Virus record (IMG/VR): IMGVR_UViG_2778261151_000002
Span: 1-5,669 of that record
From: a virus
Lineage: Duplodnaviria; Heunggongvirae; Uroviricota; Caudoviricetes
Length of the DNA: 5,669 nucleotides
Strand: one strand, 5' to 3'
Part shown: positions 628 to 5,669 of the stretch, piece by piece
Position numbering within the stretch: the stretch's first letter is position 1
How the letters are laid out: each line of letters opens with the position of its first letter
Position numbers and translations under genes: made by a program
Notes under the pieces: model-generated
Database searches by the model: none
The model's input: only the letters and a program-made list of their open reading frames with translations
Told to the model about the DNA's origin: nothing

Positions 628-703
628 TGGTGCTGGTTAACGGACTTGAACCGCTACCCATTCGCTTACAAGGCGACTGCTCTACCATTGGAGCTAAACC
701 AGC
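628..703 (-). tRNA. tRNA, manual fold gives anticodon UGU (Thr); 76 nt with encoded CCA
   Basis: Minus-strand read: acceptor GCTGGTT/AACCAGC (7 bp), D-arm GCTC-CAATGGTA-GAGC, anticodon arm GTCGC-CTTGTAA-GCGAA (U33, anticodon TGT, A37), 5-nt variable loop, T-arm AGCGG-TTCAAGT-CCGTT, discriminator A, CCA. Isotype assignment is by hand and needs tRNAscan-SE. Confidence 0.75.
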
Positions 704-708
704 ATATT

Positions 709-783
709 TGGCGGGACAGCGTGGACTCGAACCACGATAAGAAGGTTAACAGCCTTCCGTAATGACCTTTATACGACTGACCC
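709..783 (-). tRNA. tRNA, manual fold gives anticodon GUU (Asn); 75 nt with encoded CCA
   Basis: Minus-strand read: acceptor GGGTCAG/CTGTCCC (6 of 7 bp, U-U at 4:69), D-arm GTAT-AAAGGTCA-TTAC, anticodon arm GAAGG-CTGTTAA-CCTTC (perfect 5 bp, U33, anticodon GTT, A37), 4-nt variable loop, canonical T-arm CGTGG-TTCGAGT-CCACG, discriminator G, CCA. Separated from the other tRNA by 5 nt. Confidence 0.7.
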
Positions 784-1004: not shown

Positions 1005-1628
1005 CTAACGTGTGACCGCATTCAAAATGTTGTCTGCGATTGACTCTTCTTTGTGGCATTGCACCACCAGGGCGTCATACAGCGGCTTAACAGTGCGTGA
1101 CCAGGTGGGTTGAGTAAGGTTTGGGATTAGCATCGTTACAGCGCGATATGCTGCGCTTGCTGGCATCCTTGAATAACCGACGCCTTTACATCTTCCGCAC
1201 TCTTTCTCAACAACTCTCCCCCACTGCTCTGTTTTTGCTATATCAACTGCCCGGCCTGTACCGTGGCAATCTCTGCATCTTGCGCCCGGCGTCGCGGCAC
1301 TACGACAATAATCCGCATAAGCGAATGTTGCGAGCACTTGCAGTACCTTTGCCTTAGTGTTTCCTTCGAGCTTTGCCACACCACGGTATTTCCCCGATAC
1401 CTTGTGTGCAAATTGCATCAGATAGTTGATAGCCTTTTGTTTGTCGTTCTGGCTGAGTTCATGCTTACCGCAAAATGCAGCCATTCCGAATCCGGCTTGT
1501 GATTGCGCCATCCCCATAGCAGCCATCACATCAGTACCGGAAAGAGAGTCAGAAGCCGTAGCCCGTGGTGAGTCGCTCATCATCGGGCTTTTTGGCGAAT
1601 GAAATTTAGCTACGCTTTCGAGTCTCAT
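1005..1628 (-). CDS. Q: Late-gene antitermination protein Q (lambda-type, 207 aa)
   Basis: Full-length ORF MRLESVAKFHSPKSPMMSDSPRATASDS...CRDCHGTGRAV...ECGRCKGVGY...NAVTR, with the zinc-binding Cys cluster and the length of lambda Q. Start overlaps the ninH stop (ATGA). Lies directly upstream of the pR'/qut sequence. Confidence 0.95.
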   Translation of the reverse strand: MRLESVAKFHSPKSPMMSDSPRATASDSLSGTDVMAAMGMAQSQAGFGMAAFCGKHELSQNDKQKAINYLMQFAHKVSGKYRGVAKLEGNTKAKVLQVLATFAYADYCRSAATPGARCRDCHGTGRAVDIAKTEQWGRVVEKECGRCKGVGYSRMPASAAYRAVTMLIPNLTQPTWSRTVKPLYDALVVQCHKEESIADNILNAVTR

Positions 1629-1813
1629 CGTCTTCCCCTCTTGCCCTGTTTGACCATCAGGACGCCGTTAACTATTACGTGACGCTCGCCTTTGCTGTCT
1701 CGGTTGTACTTGAGCACTGTTCCTCTTGCGCAGGAAAGCATCCTCGCCACTTCGGTCTGATTGCCTCGTGTCTGGATAAGAAGCTCTGGTATCGTTTGAA
1801 TTGTGGCGTTCAT
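1625..1813 (-). CDS. ninH: NinH-like small DNA-binding protein (62 aa)
   Basis: MNATIQTIPELLIQTRGNQTEVARMLSCARGTVLKYNRDSKGERHVIVNGVLMV... resembles lambda NinH (GNQTEVARRL...RGTV..KY...H.IVN.VLMV) as I recall it. Position immediately upstream of Q as in lambda. ATGA overlaps on both sides. Confidence 0.8.
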   Translation of the reverse strand: MNATIQTIPELLIQTRGNQTEVARMLSCARGTVLKYNRDSKGERHVIVNGVLMVKQGKRGRR

Positions 1814-2172
1814 ACGTTCTCCAGTTCGGTGATTTTTATTCCAAGCCTTCCGCCTGGTACTTTCACACCACGAATTACGCGAATGTCATCGAATTGCTCG
1901 TCGTCTTCCGCAAATCCGGCGTGGATAAGAGAGTCGAGTAGCCCCTTCAGGATGTTGTCGAGGTCGCGGCGGCGGGAGTCTGGAACGTCTGCGATGACTT
2001 TGATGCGGAGTCGTGCTTTGGTGAAAATATCTAACTTGAGTTGGCGGATGATTTGCTGAACGTCTTTTCGGTATTTCTGGCCTTTATCGCTGATGTAGTA
2101 TCGGCTTCCCCGTCTTCGCCAGTAGGTGTTCAGCGACGGCGGGTATGGAAGCGTGAATCTGTACTCATTCAT
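1810..2172 (-). CDS. rusA: Holliday-junction resolvase RusA (120 aa)
   Basis: MNEYRFTLPYPPSLNTYWRRRGSRYYISDKGQKYRKDV...DSRRRDLDNILKGLLDSL...GGRLGIKITELENV matches the RusA family pattern (LPxPPS.N, RRRDLDN catalytic acidic cluster) and length. Occupies the slot held by rap/ninG in lambda. Confidence 0.9.
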   Translation of the reverse strand: MNEYRFTLPYPPSLNTYWRRRGSRYYISDKGQKYRKDVQQIIRQLKLDIFTKARLRIKVIADVPDSRRRDLDNILKGLLDSLIHAGFAEDDEQFDDIRVIRGVKVPGGRLGIKITELENV

Positions 2173-2939
2173 GCAGCCTCCCCTGTTACTTTCAGCATTC
2201 CGTTATCGAGCAGCTTTCTGGTCAGCCACTGTTGACCACGCCCGGTGATTTTTGTGGTGAACGATATCTGTATTCCGTGATTTGTGTTGACCGCTGTTTC
2301 TTTCACTGTGAAATAGCCGCGATCCATATATTCCTGCATTGGCACATTGCGCCGGGAACCTGAAGCAATAAGGATTTTGTGATCACGCATCCACGCAAAC
2401 AGTTTGTTTGGGCCAATACCAACAACCTTTGCAAAGTTTCCAATCAAAATTCCGCTGGCCTCGCCAACGCGATCGGCAAACTCAACTTTAGGTGCGGCAA
2501 TCGCGAGTTGTTGCTCCAGCTTCACTTTCTGCTCATATTCGTTTGCCCACGCTCTGGCGGCTTCAGCAGGGTTTGTGAAGTCGGGCAAGGCTGACTTATC
2601 TTCTTTTTGGCCACGAAAATAATTGCGAACAAGCTCACGTTGCACTCTCCACGCCGTCTCGTCGCGCAGGGTTTTAACCAGCATCAAATAGCCTGATTCA
2701 GTGAAAACTCGCATGCCACGAGGAGGAATTTCAAAACCCCTTCTAAAGGTATTTTCATGAAAATCAATAAAATATGTATCTTCCCTGTCTATGAAATACT
2801 CAGAGTTTCGCGCATAGCCATTTTGAATAGTGGCTACTGGAACCCCGTGAATATCAGCAATCATTTGATACGTAACAACACGCTCGCCATTAAACTCAAT
2901 CGGCACGATTTCTGCGTTGGCAATAATTACGGCATTCAT
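2169..2939 (-). CDS. Phage antirepressor-like protein, ORF6N (KilA-N-like) N-terminal domain + KilA-C/ANT C-terminal domain (256 aa)
   Basis: N-terminus IEFNGERVVTYQMIADIHGV...PRGMRVFTESGYLMLVKTLRDETAWRVQRELVRNYF fits the ORF6N pattern (P..FTE.G..ML...L....A). C-terminus FADRVGEASGILIGNFAKVVGIGPNKLFAWMRDHKIL fits the KilA-C/ANT domain. Start ATG overlaps the upstream stop (ATGA at 2936..2939); stop overlaps the rusA start. Confidence 0.8.
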   Translation of the reverse strand: MNAVIIANAEIVPIEFNGERVVTYQMIADIHGVPVATIQNGYARNSEYFIDREDTYFIDFHENTFRRGFEIPPRGMRVFTESGYLMLVKTLRDETAWRVQRELVRNYFRGQKEDKSALPDFTNPAEAARAWANEYEQKVKLEQQLAIAAPKVEFADRVGEASGILIGNFAKVVGIGPNKLFAWMRDHKILIASGSRRNVPMQEYMDRGYFTVKETAVNTNHGIQISFTTKITGRGQQWLTRKLLDNGMLKVTGEAA

Positions 2940-3190
2940 GCAACACCTCCTTCAACGACAATAATGCTGTCGCGCTTACCTTGTTCGCCTTCGAAGACGT
3001 AATGCTCGTACTGAACATTGAACCCTAAGTTATTGATTCTTTCGGAAACCTCAATTTGAGGAAGCCGGATAACTCCACTTTTAACCAGCGTTTCGATGGT
3101 ACGTTTCACATTGTCATGACGCTTACCCACCAACTCAGCGATTTCAATGCTGGTCATTTTGATGGCGTTGCTATTTATCAGCTCGTTCAT
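2936..3190 (-). CDS. Small Rha-family-like phage regulatory protein (84 aa), stand-alone N-terminal-domain-only form
   Basis: MNELINSNAIKMTSIEIAELVGKRHDNVKRTIETLVKSG... has the KRHDNV-R-I motif typical of phage Rha N-terminal domains. Start chosen at ATG 3190..3188 (SD GAGAGGA about 7 nt upstream) rather than the ATG at 3196, whose spacer is too short. Stop overlaps the Ant start. Confidence 0.55.
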   Translation of the reverse strand: MNELINSNAIKMTSIEIAELVGKRHDNVKRTIETLVKSGVIRLPQIEVSERINNLGFNVQYEHYVFEGEQGKRDSIIVVEGGVA

Positions 3191-3220
3191 TGTCATGTCC
3201 TCTCATATTGAAAATTCAGC

Positions 3221-3246
3221 AATAAAAAACCCAGCCGAAGCTGGGT
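3221..3246 (-). terminator. Rho-independent terminator (minus strand) immediately downstream of the Roi-like gene
   Basis: Minus strand reads CCCAGC-TTCG-GCTGGG followed by TTTTTTATT: a 6-bp GC-rich stem, UUCG tetraloop and U6 tract. The plus strand has no T-tract after the hairpin, so it is unidirectional. Confidence 0.8.
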
Positions 3247-3264
3247 CGTTGCGTTGGCAATCTG

Positions 3265-3969
3265 TCAGTAGTGATGTAGTGAAGGAGGTAATTCTTTGTT
3301 CTTAAGTCTTACCCATGCAGAAAGATTCGTTGGTCCGTCTGGCTCATTAATATCAACATCTCGTGTGTGATTGATTAAAACGTCTCTCGCCATTCCGATA
3401 ACATACGAGAACTCATGACCGTAGTCGTGGCATCTGCCGGAATAGTTAGACTGAATTTGTCTTAGCGCCGGATACAGTTCGCGGAATAATGCCTGTGAGC
3501 GGTTGGCATAATCCCACAACCATACCAGACTGTTTGCATCTTTTGCAGAAAGCTCGCTGGTTTTCTTCTCGTGATGACCTGCGCTTTTCGAAGTCTGGCT
3601 GAAATAGCAGTCTTCCAGTTTTTCGAACACGTCCCATGCCTGATCGGTTTCGAGCATCTTCGCGTGACGGGCTGCGCCTCGTTCTGTCCAGAGGATGAGC
3701 GAGCGGGTTTTCGGGGAAATTTGTAACCCTCTTAAAGATGGTTGCAAATTTTGTGAGTAGTTTAAAGCTACCCGCAATTCTTTAAGGTCATTACCAACAA
3801 CTTTGAAAAAGTGTTTCCCTTCAACGAAGCGTACTTTGTTCTCATGATGATTCTGGCGAATACGCACCGGCTCAGTGCCGTAAAGCTGCGCCAAAAGTTC
3901 AGTGGTAATAACAGGTATCTGGTTATGGGTGATCGGGGAGAGAGTTTCAACAGCAATTTGAGTTGTCAT
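3265..3969 (-). CDS. Roi-like DNA-binding protein: ORF6N (KilA-N-like) N-terminal domain + C-terminal domain of unknown function (234 aa)
   Basis: N-terminus [37 protein letters not shown]...[35 protein letters not shown] fits the ORF6N pattern and recalls HK022/HK97 Roi. C-terminal ~110 aa has no motif I recognise. Strong SD GGAGGTG 6 nt before ATG 3969. Flanked by intrinsic terminators on both sides. Confidence 0.7.
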
Positions 3970-4130: not shown

Positions 4131-4154
4131 ATAAAAAACACGCTTGCGGCGTGT
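4131..4154 (-). terminator. Rho-independent terminator (minus strand) upstream of the Roi-like gene, downstream of the ninE/antisense-TA region
   Basis: Minus strand reads ACACGC-CGCAA-GCGTGT followed by TTTTTTAT (6-bp stem, 5-nt loop, T-tract). Fits the position of a nin-region tR-type terminator. Confidence 0.75.
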
Positions 4155-4290
4155 GTCTGTCGCGGTAGTTATCCGGGGTGCTAATCCCGACGCCAGATTT
4201 TGCTGGCGTATGAGGAATATAGCCCCGGATATGTGTTGTCGTCAACTACAGGCCTTGAATGCATATAACGATTTTGTTATGTTGATACCT

Positions 4291-4620
4291 ATGAACTACA
4301 CTATCGAATACTACAGTGAAGATGTAAGGCTGGAAGTCGATCGGCTTCCATTGAGTATGCGTGCCCGATACCAACATCTCGTTGAACGTATGAAGATATA
4401 TGGCAGCAATCTCGGAGAACCTCACACCAGCGCCTTTGGTGACGGGCTTTTCGAACTCAGAATTAAAGGCAACGATGGGATCGCGCGTGTTTTTTACTGC
4501 ACTCTGACAGGGAAACGCATCATCATGCTGCATAGTTTTGTAAAGAAAACGCAGAAAACACCGCCAGCCGAACGCAAGAAAGCTGAAACCAGAATGAAGG
4601 AGGTTAAGCATGACTGGTAA
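4291..4620 (+). CDS. RelE/ParE-superfamily toxin-like protein (Gp49/HigB-like, ~109 aa)
   Basis: MNYTIEYYSEDVRLEVDRLP...GDGLFELRIKGNDGIARVFYCTLTGKRIIMLHSFVKKTQKTPPAERKKAETRMKE matches the Gp49-like/HigB-like pattern (F.LR......R..Y......I..L..F.KK.QKTP..E...A). ORF-track ORF 4144..4620 trimmed to an internal ATG. Alternative ATG at 4279 (MLIPMNYT...); neither has a clear SD. Stop TAA overlaps the antitoxin gene by 11 nt. Confidence 0.75.
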   Translation: MNYTIEYYSEDVRLEVDRLPLSMRARYQHLVERMKIYGSNLGEPHTSAFGDGLFELRIKGNDGIARVFYCTLTGKRIIMLHSFVKKTQKTPPAERKKAETRMKEVKHDW

Positions 4621-4918
4621 ACGCACTCTCCCCACCATGACACACGACGAAATGGCAGCCAAATGGATGGAAGACCCGGCTTTTAAAGCAGAATACGACG
4701 CTATCGCTGACGAATTCGCACTGCTTGATGAAATGCTGGCAGCACGCAAAGAAGCTGGCTTAACTCAGGCTGAAGTTGCCGAGCGAATGGGAACAAAAGC
4801 GACCGCGATCACCAGAATGGAAAGTAATCTCGCATCAGGTATCAGCGGCCCATCATTTGCCACACTAAAAAAATTCGCCCGCGCTACTGGAAAAAAACTC
4901 CAGATCCGCTTCGTTTAA
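4610..4918 (+). CDS. HTH-XRE antitoxin-like protein (HigA-like, 102 aa)
   Basis: MTGKRTLPTMTHDEMAAKWMEDPAFKAEYDAIADEFALLDEMLAARKEAGLTQAEVAERMGTKATAITRMESN...FATLKKFARATGKKLQIRFV has a helix-turn-helix (LTQAEVAERMGT...ITRMES) and the conserved C-terminal L.IR.V tail seen in antitoxins partnered with Gp49/HigB-like toxins. Strong SD AAGGAGGT 6 nt before the ATG. Overlaps the toxin gene. Confidence 0.8.
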   Translation: MTGKRTLPTMTHDEMAAKWMEDPAFKAEYDAIADEFALLDEMLAARKEAGLTQAEVAERMGTKATAITRMESNLASGISGPSFATLKKFARATGKKLQIRFV

Positions 4919-4959: not shown

Positions 4960-5136
4960 TCATTTCCTCGCACGATGTCTTAGCCACCGGATATCCCACA
5001 GGTGAGCCGTGTAGTTGAAGGTTTTTACGTCAGATTCTTTTGGGATTGGCTTGCGTTTATTTCTGGAGCGTTTCGTTGGAAGGTATTTGCAGTTTTCGCA
5101 GATGATGTCGGTGAAACTTCGTCGCTGTCGTCTCAT
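4960..5136 (-). CDS. ninE: NinE-like small protein (58 aa)
   Basis: [58 protein letters not shown] resembles lambdoid NinE as I recall it. Start ATG overlaps the ninB stop (ATGA at 5133..5136). The ORF-track version (from 5196) uses an upstream GTG that overlaps ninB; an alternative in-frame ATG at 5154 cannot be excluded. Confidence 0.7.
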
Positions 5137-5573
5137 GCCGCCCTGTCTCCCCATCGCGCTTTCCACTCCAGAGCCAGTCGCGCTTCGTCTGACCACTTAA
5201 CGCCACGCTCTGTACCGAATGCCTGTATAAGCTCTAATAGCTCCGCAAATTCGCTTACACGCATCCTGCTGGTTGACTGGCCTATTACCACAAAGCCATT
5301 CCCGGCAAGGTTAGGAACAACGTCCTGCTGCTTTAATGCTGCGGTAAACACACACTTCCAGCTTTCTGCATCCAGCCAGCGACCATGCCATTCAACCTGA
5401 CGAGAGACGTCACCAAGGCAAGCCCAAAGCTTTCGATTCTGGTCTAAGCTGCGGTTGCGTTCCTGAATGGTTACTACGATTGGTTTGGTTGGGTCTGGAA
5501 GAATTTGCTGTACTGCGTGAATAGCGTTTTGCTGATGTGCTGGAGATCGAATTTCAAAGGTTAGTTTTTTCAT
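5133..5573 (-). CDS. ninB: Recombination protein NinB (Orf family, 146 aa)
   Basis: [76 protein letters not shown]...[16 protein letters not shown] is essentially lambda NinB as I recall it. True start at ATG 5573 with SD GGGAGAGGGAAG upstream; the ORF-track start at 5591 is an upstream TTG. Confidence 0.95.
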
Positions 5574-5669
5574 GACTTCCCTCTCCCCCAAAGTAAGCGG
5601 CTCGCCAGAACCGTATTGATATTTACTGAGAAGTCAGATCAACTTTCCAGGGCAACAGATCGCGTACCC

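Follow-up and report, generated by a model that had tools for sequence, protein, structure and literature searches.

The 84-aa open reading frame (ORF) lying ahead of an antirepressor-type gene in the window, the whole 5,669-nt stretch of viral DNA analysed here, is very probably what remains of the 5′ end of a roi gene, a stump orphaned when a different N-terminal module with its own start was spliced in. The stump occupies positions 3190..2936 on the minus strand (86 aa when the upstream ATG at 3196 is taken as the start) and consists of Roi residues 1–79 followed by EGGVA and a stop codon, with the sequence GKRHDNVK at residues 22–29. The neighbouring gene (2169..2939, minus strand; ORF list and Pfam) encodes a 256-aa chimeric protein of the Roi class, with an ORF6N N-terminal domain and a KilAC C-terminal domain. 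The first-pass annotation had described both, a KRHDNV-bearing ORF and an ORF6N plus KilA-C protein, and both are present, with the domains confirmed by Pfam. It had also regarded the short stand-alone Rha protein as an unusual, dedicated partner of the Ant-like protein. This view did not hold, as the ORF corresponds to the first 79 codons of roi running into a spliced-in ribosome-binding site and start. With the 84-aa gene read as a roi leftover, the 'pair' is thus no new two-protein regulatory module but a commonplace scar left by the shuffling of phage genes.

The 84-aa ORF matched 553 phage records in tblastn searches, and the top matches sit at the start of ~240-aa genes annotated as roi, 'DNA-binding protein Roi' or 'anti-repressor'. 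Residues 1–79 are 92–96% identical to the N-terminus of the ~240-aa Roi proteins of HK620, H-19B and Stx phages, the amino acid identity to Roi of H-19B, HK620 and others being 94.9% over this region. At the nucleotide level, blastn aligned window positions 3211..2953 with nt 1–235 of HK620 roi and its leader (91.9% identity). This roi-derived block (2953..3211, minus strand; blastn, alignment and tblastn) comprises the 5′ leader, a Shine-Dalgarno sequence (GAGG, 3202..3199), the start codon at 3190 and codons 1–79 of a Roi-type protein, that is, of its Rha N-domain. A second roi block begins further downstream: the 363 nt at the 3′ end of the 256-aa gene (2535..2173) match HK620 roi nt 357–719 with 96% identity. 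The block as a whole (2169..2535, minus strand) encodes the end of a roi-type linker and the KilAC (ANT) domain, the C-terminal half of the 256-aa protein, and was defined by nucleotide and amino acid identity and by Pfam. Its nucleotide identity to roi of HK620, S51 and WGPS8 is 96.1–97.2%, and its product is 96% identical to the same region of the Rha-type protein P0123.

Between the two roi blocks, a foreign stretch of 417 nt (2536..2952, minus strand) takes the place of 121 nt of roi, as seen by blastn and by base-level alignment against roi. The replacement starts exactly at AAGGAGGT-N5-ATG: the Shine-Dalgarno sequence AAGGAGGT (2952..2945) is followed by a 5-nt spacer and the ATG at 2939, then by the ORF6N domain and the start of the linker, so that the foreign block encodes residues 1–134 of the 256-aa protein. 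The sequence across the junction is GTCGTTGAAGGAGGTGYTGCATGAATGCC. The last five codons of the stump (EGGVA) and its TGA are supplied by the Shine-Dalgarno sequence and ATG of the incoming gene. A single Rha–Ant polypeptide, which the first-pass annotation had proposed looking for in homologous prophages, does exist: it is Roi itself, of ~240 aa with Rha and KilAC domains, found in hundreds of phage records. In the window the single ~240-aa frame expected in the ninF-roi-(ybcO)-rusA slot is interrupted and divided between the 84-aa and 256-aa ORFs. As the slot and both end blocks are those of roi, comparison of the sequences identifies the locus as a rearranged derivative of that gene.

The 4-nt overlap of the two ORFs, together with the Shine-Dalgarno-like element ahead of the stop codon, might also be read as a single gene for a Rha–ORF6N–KilAC protein expressed by programmed ribosomal frameshifting, or as one gene split by a sequencing or assembly frameshift. 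The sequence ..GGT GTT GCA TGA, however, contains no slippery heptamer. The identical junction is present in 31 independently assembled related loci, and no three-domain homologue occurs among the best 120 of 177 and the best 120 of 1526 proteins matched. The 256-aa ORF moreover has a complete ORF6N domain from residue 1 onward, a feature shared by the proteins P0122 and P0174. With no slippery site, a recurrent junction and no fusion homologue among the matches listed, a frameshift of either kind is exceedingly improbable and already effectively refuted.

Pfam and TIGRFAM profiles were used to determine how much of each domain is present, full membership of the Rha family being taken as a match of the whole domain model (about 91–108 positions) above the curated cut-off of PF09669 (Phage_pRha) or TIGR02681. 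The 84-aa ORF scored 30.3 bits against a Phage_pRha cut-off of 29.9, covering only profile positions 1–27 of 91, and failed TIGR02681 with 21.2 bits against 45.95; neither model was matched in full. The 84-aa ORF is thus a fragment of a Rha family member and not a complete member. The domains named by the first-pass annotation were recovered in full for the 256-aa protein, and only in part (27 of 91 positions) for Phage_pRha. ORF6N (PF10543) scored 41.4 bits against a cut-off of 27.8 at residues 14–89, over profile positions 4–85 of 86, and ANT/KilAC (PF03374) scored 114.8 bits against 25.3 at residues 142–244, over positions 1–106 of 108, placing the protein in both families.

Intact Roi proteins align to Phage_pRha over residues 12–99, covering positions 1–91 of 91, and the stump lacks residues 80–99 of the domain. 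In an AlphaFold2 model of intact Roi, residues 11–100 have pLDDT values of 83–95 and helices are predicted at 68–82 and 84–102. In the stump, helix 3 is accordingly cut short and the conserved helix 4 is missing altogether. Conservation of the missing helix, SPEFTARLVDRWRELE, extends to relatives from Xanthomonas, Pseudomonas and Klebsiella. Since these elements are absent, the stump is most likely a non-functional fragment. A sequence search of the PDB with intact Roi gave no match at E <= 1, and Foldseek comparison of the Roi model, half of which is of low confidence, gave nothing in the PDB at E <= 0.001.

The stump and the 256-aa gene are followed on the minus strand by rusA (2172..1810), ninH (1813..1625) and Q (1628..1005), all three identified by Pfam. 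The set (1005..2172) is joined by ATGA overlaps, and all four overlaps (stump/256-aa gene, 256-aa gene/RusA, RusA/NinH and NinH/Q) could be read directly from the sequence, in agreement with the first-pass annotation. Upstream of the stump lies a 234-aa gene (3265..3969, minus strand) with ORF6N and P22AR_C domains (Pfam and annotation), which is the 'Ant' of Stx phage annotations and a separate gene of the same broad class. Between this gene and the stump, a scan combined with folding detected an intrinsic-terminator-like hairpin (3228..3247, minus strand) with an 8-bp G+C-rich stem, a UUCG loop and a U-run (-16.1 kcal/mol, z = -2.1). An identical hairpin precedes the intact roi of strain S51, and it is presumably a nin-region terminator read through by N-modified polymerase. 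In HK620 the annotation of the corresponding slot reads ninF-roi-HkbD-rus-ninH-Q; tR2 precedes it and pR'/qut follows Q. The gene order given earlier is thus right, but the 'Q operon' in which the pair was placed is not a separate unit: the locus belongs to the pR delayed-early operon, as its nin region, and Q is where that operon ends.

These arrangements suggest the following course of events. In an ancestor of this prophage, a module for an ORF6N-type N-terminus, equipped with a Shine-Dalgarno sequence and ATG of its own, would have been joined into roi after codon 79, continuing into the roi-type linker and KilAC domain. One product would be the 256-aa chimeric Roi-class protein, ORF6N plus KilAC, translated from its own strong Shine-Dalgarno sequence. 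The other would be the old roi start with codons 1–79, whose translation probably continues, since the ribosome-binding site and ATG of roi have stayed intact. The stump frame would run through the new Shine-Dalgarno sequence (E-G-G-V-A) and stop at the TGA of the ATGA created by the new start codon, and as it closes at the incoming start, both the ATGA overlap and the apparent pairing would be by-products of the junction. Both genes are part of the pR delayed-early transcript, ahead of Q, and their expression would be expected to follow N-mediated read-through of the hairpin at 3247..3228. The stump tail ..GGAGGTGTTGCATGAATG resembles the end of a KilAC gene, ..GGGAGGCTGCATGAATG. Because of this resemblance we also considered an internal deletion of the first gene in a tandem [Rha-KilAC][ORF6N-KilAC] pair as the possible origin, which is inseparable from simple replacement and would lead to the same conclusion.

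Among the related loci examined, 31 share this junction. The roi 5′ alleles that carry it are of two types, HK620/H-19B and HK022/HK97 (the second stump allele is 90% identical to residues 1–79 of HK022 Roi), and it is combined with two ORF6N alleles. A junction shared by 31 loci on different roi alleles therefore fits one founding event, which would later have been reshuffled by homologous recombination with intact roi genes. The junction would in this way have been carried onto several roi alleles. One further locus (L018) carries a 77%-related ORF6N and linker with a different KilAC domain, behind a Rha–KilAC gene broken at another point; that gene has an in-frame stop in its helix-turn-helix motif and an apparent frameshift in an A-run. 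This locus is an independent junction with a visibly decayed stump.

Of 5426 complete E. coli genomes only 4 contained the ORF6N block, in each case adjoining the stump, and the best match to the block among phage records had 46% amino acid identity. The ORF6N domain of the neighbouring 234-aa gene was considered as the source and rejected, the two being only 25% identical. When the block was sought elsewhere, GTDB species genomes gave matches only to the conserved linker motif PDFTNPAE, IMG/VR only four identical copies, and one metagenome scan only three more carriers of the same junction. No locus with this ORF6N subfamily and without an upstream Rha stump was found in the E. coli genomes, GTDB, IMG/VR or the metagenome scan.

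The alternative that the 84-aa product is a genuine small Rha-type helix-turn-helix protein, translationally coupled with its Ant-like partner in a regulatory, anti-defence or exclusion pair, draws on the maintenance of the ORF. It is open in all 31 junction loci, in about six protein variants, and stays open even in FDAARGOS_944 and VL40, where a frameshift and IS1, respectively, interrupt the 256-aa gene. The ATGA overlap, start codon and good Shine-Dalgarno sequence are kept, as is the helix-turn-helix part of the domain. Some 100 blocks of the assembly collection list exactly this 84-aa protein, in the same context at each of the ten places shown. RefSeq is inconsistent on its status: in one genome PGAP lists a CDS (WP_001004004.1), which favours a real gene, and in two others, FDAARGOS_943 and VL40, it marks a pseudogene ('Rha family transcriptional regulator, incomplete, missing C-terminus', 237 nt), which does not. 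The 256-aa protein is named 'phage antirepressor Ant' (WP_001344365.1).

The statistics lend the stump little help. Variation within the clade amounts to at most 6 differences, so that dN/dS has no power and gives no sign of constraint, and the low ratios of 0.10–0.20 against intact roi alleles reflect divergence older than the junction. From two independent disruptions in the 771-nt neighbour, about 0.7 would be predicted in the 255-nt stump, and zero would be expected about half of the time. Recombination with intact roi alleles would also keep refreshing the stump. Because there are few differences, few disruptions are expected and recombination can intervene, the openness of the frame, the kept Shine-Dalgarno sequence and start, and the lack of any stump-free ORF6N locus among those searched are weak evidence for function. 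Against a dedicated pair stand also the make-up of the ORF itself (Roi residues 1–79 and read-through of the next gene's Shine-Dalgarno sequence), the loss of the conserved last helix, the decay of the independent stump in L018, and the strong Shine-Dalgarno sequence of the downstream gene, which needs no coupling. With PADLOC, neither the 84-aa nor the 256-aa protein matched a defence-system model (E <= 0.001). We consider a true protein pair very unlikely.

The 256-aa gene itself is clearly maintained. Between the window and a related locus (L020) it shows 15 synonymous and 3 non-synonymous changes (pN/pS 0.06), and is under purifying selection. The chimera is the functional gene of the slot, of the Roi/AriS type. 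For this protein 'antirepressor' is a family label, its functional sense being suggested by family names; a literature search for experimental evidence of antirepressor activity in Roi-type proteins found none, and we know of no Roi-type protein with repressor-binding activity.

The stump might instead be kept for its DNA, through cis sites (for IHF or Roi) or through a translation start coupled to ninF that serves the downstream nin genes. A consensus scan located the IHF site AATCAATAACTTA on the minus strand within the stump (3026..3038, roi nt 153–165), one of 2 matches in the window against 0.28 expected. This perfect consensus is at the same position in HK022- and HK620-type roi alleles despite their amino acid divergence and is retained in both stump alleles; at both independent junctions, those of the window and of L018, the resident gene has retained its 5′ part. 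Roi of HK022, as Clerget and Boccard are said to have found in 1996, binds within its own gene beside an IHF site. The match nevertheless lies in coding sequence that is constrained anyway, and with the Rha N-domain gone a Roi operator would be left without its cognate binder unless a co-resident phage supplied one. A functional role of the site may be suggested from the consensus, and maintenance of the stump for its DNA appears unlikely. A related and quite speculative idea, to which we give little credence, is that the stump encodes a truncated helix-turn-helix mini-protein that interferes with the full-length Roi of other lambdoid phages, whether co-resident or superinfecting, or that its IHF/Roi operator places ORF6N-KilAC and rusA-ninH-Q under the Roi of other phages. 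If true, the scar would be a cross-talk or exclusion element, and the open frame in every carrier would be explained.

The known protein closest to this locus is Roi of HK022, HK97, HK620, H-19B and Stx phages (240–241 aa, Phage_pRha plus ANT/KilAC), which occupies the same slot, from ninE/ninF to ybcO/rusA-ninH-Q. The stump is Roi residues 1–79 (92–96%) and the last 121 residues of the 256-aa protein correspond to its KilAC domain (96% at the nucleotide level), whereas here the gene is split, the Rha domain truncated and orphaned, and KilAC placed behind a foreign ORF6N with its own start. HK022 Roi is likewise said, again after Clerget and Boccard (1996), to combine a variable N-domain regulator with a host-directed KilAC effector.

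The architecture of a variable N-domain and a C-terminal KilAC, which Pfam finds in the 256-aa protein, is that of AriS-like regulators. AriS of Listeria phage phi10403S is a two-domain KilAC regulator, in which the variable N-domain provides phage-specific regulation and KilAC is a host-directed effector; AntA/B, Bro-N and pRha domains alternate on a constant KilAC, and the activities of the two domains have been tested and are separable (Azulay et al. 2022, PMC9043618). Gp07 of phi11 is Bro-N plus KilA-C (PMC5944126). The shared plan is an exchangeable N-domain on a constant ANT/KilAC, and the window shows such an exchange at the DNA level with the displaced module still visible. ORF6N is, however, absent from the N-domains listed for AriS-like proteins (PMC9043618), and the likeness here is one of domain architecture alone. 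By analogy the 256-aa protein may act like other two-domain KilAC regulators; in the dual-function AriS-like proteins the SOS response of the host is inhibited by KilAC, and the N-domain controls genes of the phage itself.

P22 Ant and P1 Ant1/KilA gave their names to the ANT/KilAC and P22AR_C domains. The 256-aa protein shares KilAC with them and the upstream 234-aa protein P22AR_C, but the domain combinations differ from that of P22 Ant, and any binding of a repressor by either protein is hypothetical. Iyer, Koonin and Aravind reportedly described in 2002 the shuffling of KilA-N, Bro-N, ORF6N, Rha, KilA-C and P22AR-C modules. In the model attributed to Hendrix and Juhala, mosaic junctions in lambdoid genomes are said to arise by illegitimate recombination followed by selection. 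The junction in the window does not differ from these in any essential way: it is an intragenic joint near a domain boundary, with flanks 92–97% identical to other phages and a displaced remnant left in place, and it is a clean, datable case in which the intermediate, the stump, is present. It opens no new mechanism and makes no long-standing question testable. Short 'Rha family regulators' adjoining Ant-like prophage genes should be viewed with caution, as they can be stumps from module exchange. Elsewhere roi is frequently broken in different ways, by a nonsense mutation at codon 50, giving a 49-aa and a 159-aa ORF, and by frameshifts, internal in-frame deletions and other junctions; the family phrog_15709, of 59 positions, matches Roi residues 1–52.

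The window lies in a lambdoid prophage and covers its nin region, which makes up the distal part of the pR delayed-early operon. Taken in order of transcription, the minus strand encodes NinB (5591..5133), NinE (ending at 4960), a 234-aa ORF6N + P22AR_C protein (3969..3265), an 84-aa ORF (3190..2936), a 256-aa ORF6N + KilAC protein (2939..2169), RusA (2172..1810), NinH (1813..1625) and a lambda-type Q (1628..1005); genes for tRNA-Asn(GTT) and tRNA-Thr(TGT) (783..628) lie between Q and a class II holin gene. HK620 and HK022 have the same gene order, ninE-ninF-roi-(ybcO-like)-rusA-ninH-Q. ATGA overlaps were read from the sequence at all four gene junctions from the 84-aa ORF through Q. A strong intrinsic-terminator-like hairpin (3247..3228, minus strand; GACCCAGC-UUCG-GCUGGGUU followed by a U-run) is located just upstream of the roi start, and probably acts as a terminator of the nin region that N overrides; an identical hairpin precedes an intact roi in strain S51. 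Stx phages carry ileZ-argN-argO upstream of stx at the position of the two tRNA genes. On the other strand, a toxin-antitoxin pair (4144-4918) occupies the space between ninE and the ORF6N-P22AR_C gene. It consists of a Gp49/RelE-ParE-like toxin gene (4144..4620) and an HTH_3 antitoxin gene (4610..4918), overlapping by 11 nt; the listed 158-aa toxin ORF has a TTG start, and toxins of 109–155 aa are called in related loci. At this spot, three related loci (L010, L011 and L015) have a different pair, HigB/HigA, and strains S51 and WGPS8 have nothing. As its content varies among related prophages, the spot is an exchangeable moron slot.

The first-pass annotation had read the 84-aa Rha-like ORF and the antirepressor-type 256-aa gene as an unusual coupled pair. 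Its description of the two ORFs was accurate: the GKRHDNVK motif of the 84-aa ORF, the domains and the overlaps are all present. The match of the 84-aa ORF to Pfam Phage_pRha was borderline (30.3 bits against a cut-off of 29.9) and covered only positions 1–27 of the 91 in the profile. A translated search with the ORF as query, covering 50,697 phage records, gave 553 matching records, and in the best of these its residues 1–79 were 92–96% identical to the start of genes of approximately 240 aa. These genes are named roi, 'DNA-binding protein Roi' or 'anti-repressor', and occur in H-19B, HK620, HK140 and many Stx phages. Intact Roi contains a full Phage_pRha domain (residues 12–99, profile 1–91 of 91) followed by ANT/KilAC (residues 126–228), and is the single Rha-Ant polypeptide that the annotation had suggested looking for among homologues.

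Alignment at the DNA level located the junction precisely. Window positions 3211..2953 align to the HK620 roi leader and nucleotides 1–235 (92% identity), and positions 2535..2173 to roi nucleotides 357–719 (96%). Between these blocks, 417 nt (2952..2536) stand in place of 121 nt of roi. The insert begins with AAGGAGGT, followed by a 5-nt spacer and ATG, and codes for the ORF6N domain. The last roi-homologous base is 2953. Beyond it, the 84-aa ORF runs in its old frame through the incoming Shine-Dalgarno sequence, which supplies its final codons (E-G-G-V-A), and it stops at the TGA within the ATGA created by the new start codon. The pairing and the overlap thus both result from a single recombination joint, and the coupled unit proposed by the annotation was not upheld.

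To see what the truncated product (the stump) has lost, we modelled the intact Roi protein P0144 with AlphaFold2 from a 70-sequence alignment. The N-terminal domain was predicted confidently (pLDDT 83–95 for residues 11–100), with a strand at 11–13, helices at 14–21 and 25–37, strands at 45–52 and 58–67, and helices at 68–82 and 84–102. The C-terminal half of the model was unreliable, and a Foldseek search of the PDB with this model returned nothing significant. Similarity of the stump to Roi stops at residue 79, so that the last part of helix 3 and the whole of helix 4 are absent. The sequence of helix 4, SPEFTARLVDRWRELE, is conserved in relatives as distant as those of Xanthomonas and Pseudomonas. 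The stump also scored below the threshold of the NCBI Rha model (21.2 versus 45.95 bits). PGAP labels it 'Rha family transcriptional regulator, incomplete, missing C-terminus' (237 nt) in strains FDAARGOS_943 and VL40, and the same ORF is a CDS (WP_001004004.1) in FDAARGOS_944.

The 256-aa gene (Pfam ORF6N, 41.4 bits; ANT/KilAC, 114.8 bits) is a chimera of two blocks. Residues 1 to approximately 150, comprising ORF6N and linker, are about 77% identical to P0174, a related protein whose KilAC domain is only distantly related. Residues 115–256, comprising linker and KilAC, share 96% identity with P0123, a protein with a very different N-domain of Rha type, and are essentially identical to the HK022 Roi C-terminus. 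The ORF6N block is rare, being present in 4 of 5426 complete E. coli genomes, and its closest counterpart in phage records has 46% amino acid identity. It is not a copy of the ORF6N domain of the neighbouring 234-aa gene (25% identity). Purifying selection acts on the 256-aa gene: comparison with that of the related locus L020 gave 15 synonymous and 3 non-synonymous differences. Roi and the 256-aa protein map to the same coordinates of phrog_63, 'anti-repressor Ant'. A match to the IHF consensus, TATCAAATGATTG (2858-2870, minus strand), falls where the conserved VVTYQMIAD motif of ORF6N is encoded, and may be due to chance or a by-product of coding constraint.

We suggest that the 256-aa protein would be the working Roi-class product of this prophage, made as a delayed-early product from its own Shine-Dalgarno sequence, and that translation of the stump would be incidental, its product being probably unstable or inert. 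Two-domain KilAC proteins that have been tested offer an analogy: the N-domain, which is exchangeable, may provide phage-specific regulation while KilAC acts on the host. In AriS, one such protein, the KilAC domain inhibits SOS, and N-domains in the family alternate among AntA/B, Bro-N and pRha (PMC9043618). This is a textbook case of a mosaic joint formed at a domain boundary, and the protein family concerned is known to exchange its N-domains. The stump was already flagged as a pseudogene in RefSeq, and the swap is an ordinary case of such exchange; replacement of Rha by ORF6N at the roi position of lambdoid phages seems not to have been reported before.

The exact 84-aa protein is indexed in approximately 100 blocks of the assembly collection, with unchanged context at every place inspected. 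All 31 related loci share the junction sequence and an open stump ORF. Stumps were found on roi alleles of both HK620/H-19B and HK022/HK97 type; P0068, the second stump allele, shares 59% identity with the stump of the window and 90% with HK022 Roi residues 1–79. Each of two ORF6N alleles (77% nucleotide identity to each other) pairs with either stump type. A single junction with differing flanks is the pattern expected of one founding joint later moved by homologous recombination; the final ~45 nt of the stump (YVFEGEQGKRDSI), which are conserved, can provide a patch for crossover. The FDAARGOS_944 genome (NZ_CP065613.1) carries two copies of the stump + ORF6N cassette; in the one at 3.57 Mb, loss of 1 nt from an A-run near window position 2608 shifts the frame of the 256-aa gene. 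In VL40 the gene is cut by IS1.

That the stump is open in every carrier, including these two in which its neighbour is disrupted, could mean that its product still functions. Its Shine-Dalgarno sequence and start are good, and no members of the ORF6N subfamily were found without an upstream Rha stump. However, the stump varies by at most six differences within a clade, two independent disruptions in the 771-nt neighbour predict only ~0.7 in 255 nt, so that zero is unremarkable, and recombination with intact roi genes would repeatedly repair it. The arguments for function therefore carry little weight. Alternatively, the DNA might be kept for a cis-acting role: a perfect IHF consensus at roi nucleotides 153–165 is conserved in both roi allele types and in both stump alleles, and HK022 Roi reportedly binds inside its own gene beside an IHF site (work attributed to Clerget and Boccard, 1996). 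We consider it unlikely that the stump has an interference or operator function.

At locus L018 (positions 1-620), the P0174 gene, of the same ORF6N subfamily with a different KilAC, is likewise directly preceded by a Rha-KilAC gene, which is cut elsewhere, in the linker; this junction is independent of that in the window. In the single short Logan contig available, the upstream gene appears to have an in-frame stop within the conserved HTH motif (SSREIA*LTGKRHDNV). Its frame also seems to be shifted at an A7 run; eight As there would restore ..EQKKQLALQRVEF.. and an ATGA overlap. At face value this gene is a decaying pseudogene. The roi gene itself is frequently disrupted. In some cases, including Stx-phage contexts, a nonsense codon at position 50 splits it into ORFs of 49 aa (Rha) and 159 aa (ANT only). 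This split was seen in several lineages (L155:1662-2384, L156 and L159), one adjoining a Shiga-toxin (RIP) gene, and an in-frame deletion variant, P0057, breaks at this codon too, a short way before the IHF-consensus site. Frameshifts, internal in-frame deletions and other novel joints were found in the protein database and related loci. In P0133 (203 aa, protein database), residues 1–52 of the upstream ORF6N-P22AR_C protein are fused to the Roi linker and KilAC by a deletion joining the two neighbouring genes, which again marks the slot as a hot spot of rearrangement between domains. A 155-aa ORF directly upstream of the second-allele stump joins Roi residues 1–32 to an unrelated DUF559-like segment (L020:2502-2969; L019, L021-L024, L027 and L150; truncated to 92 aa in L026). 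Its DUF559/PD-(D/E)xK endonuclease-like match is marginal (Pfam E = 0.0012, below cut-off), and it may represent a homing-endonuclease-like insertion into roi that left another stump. PHROGs contains a 59-position family matching Roi residues 1–52.
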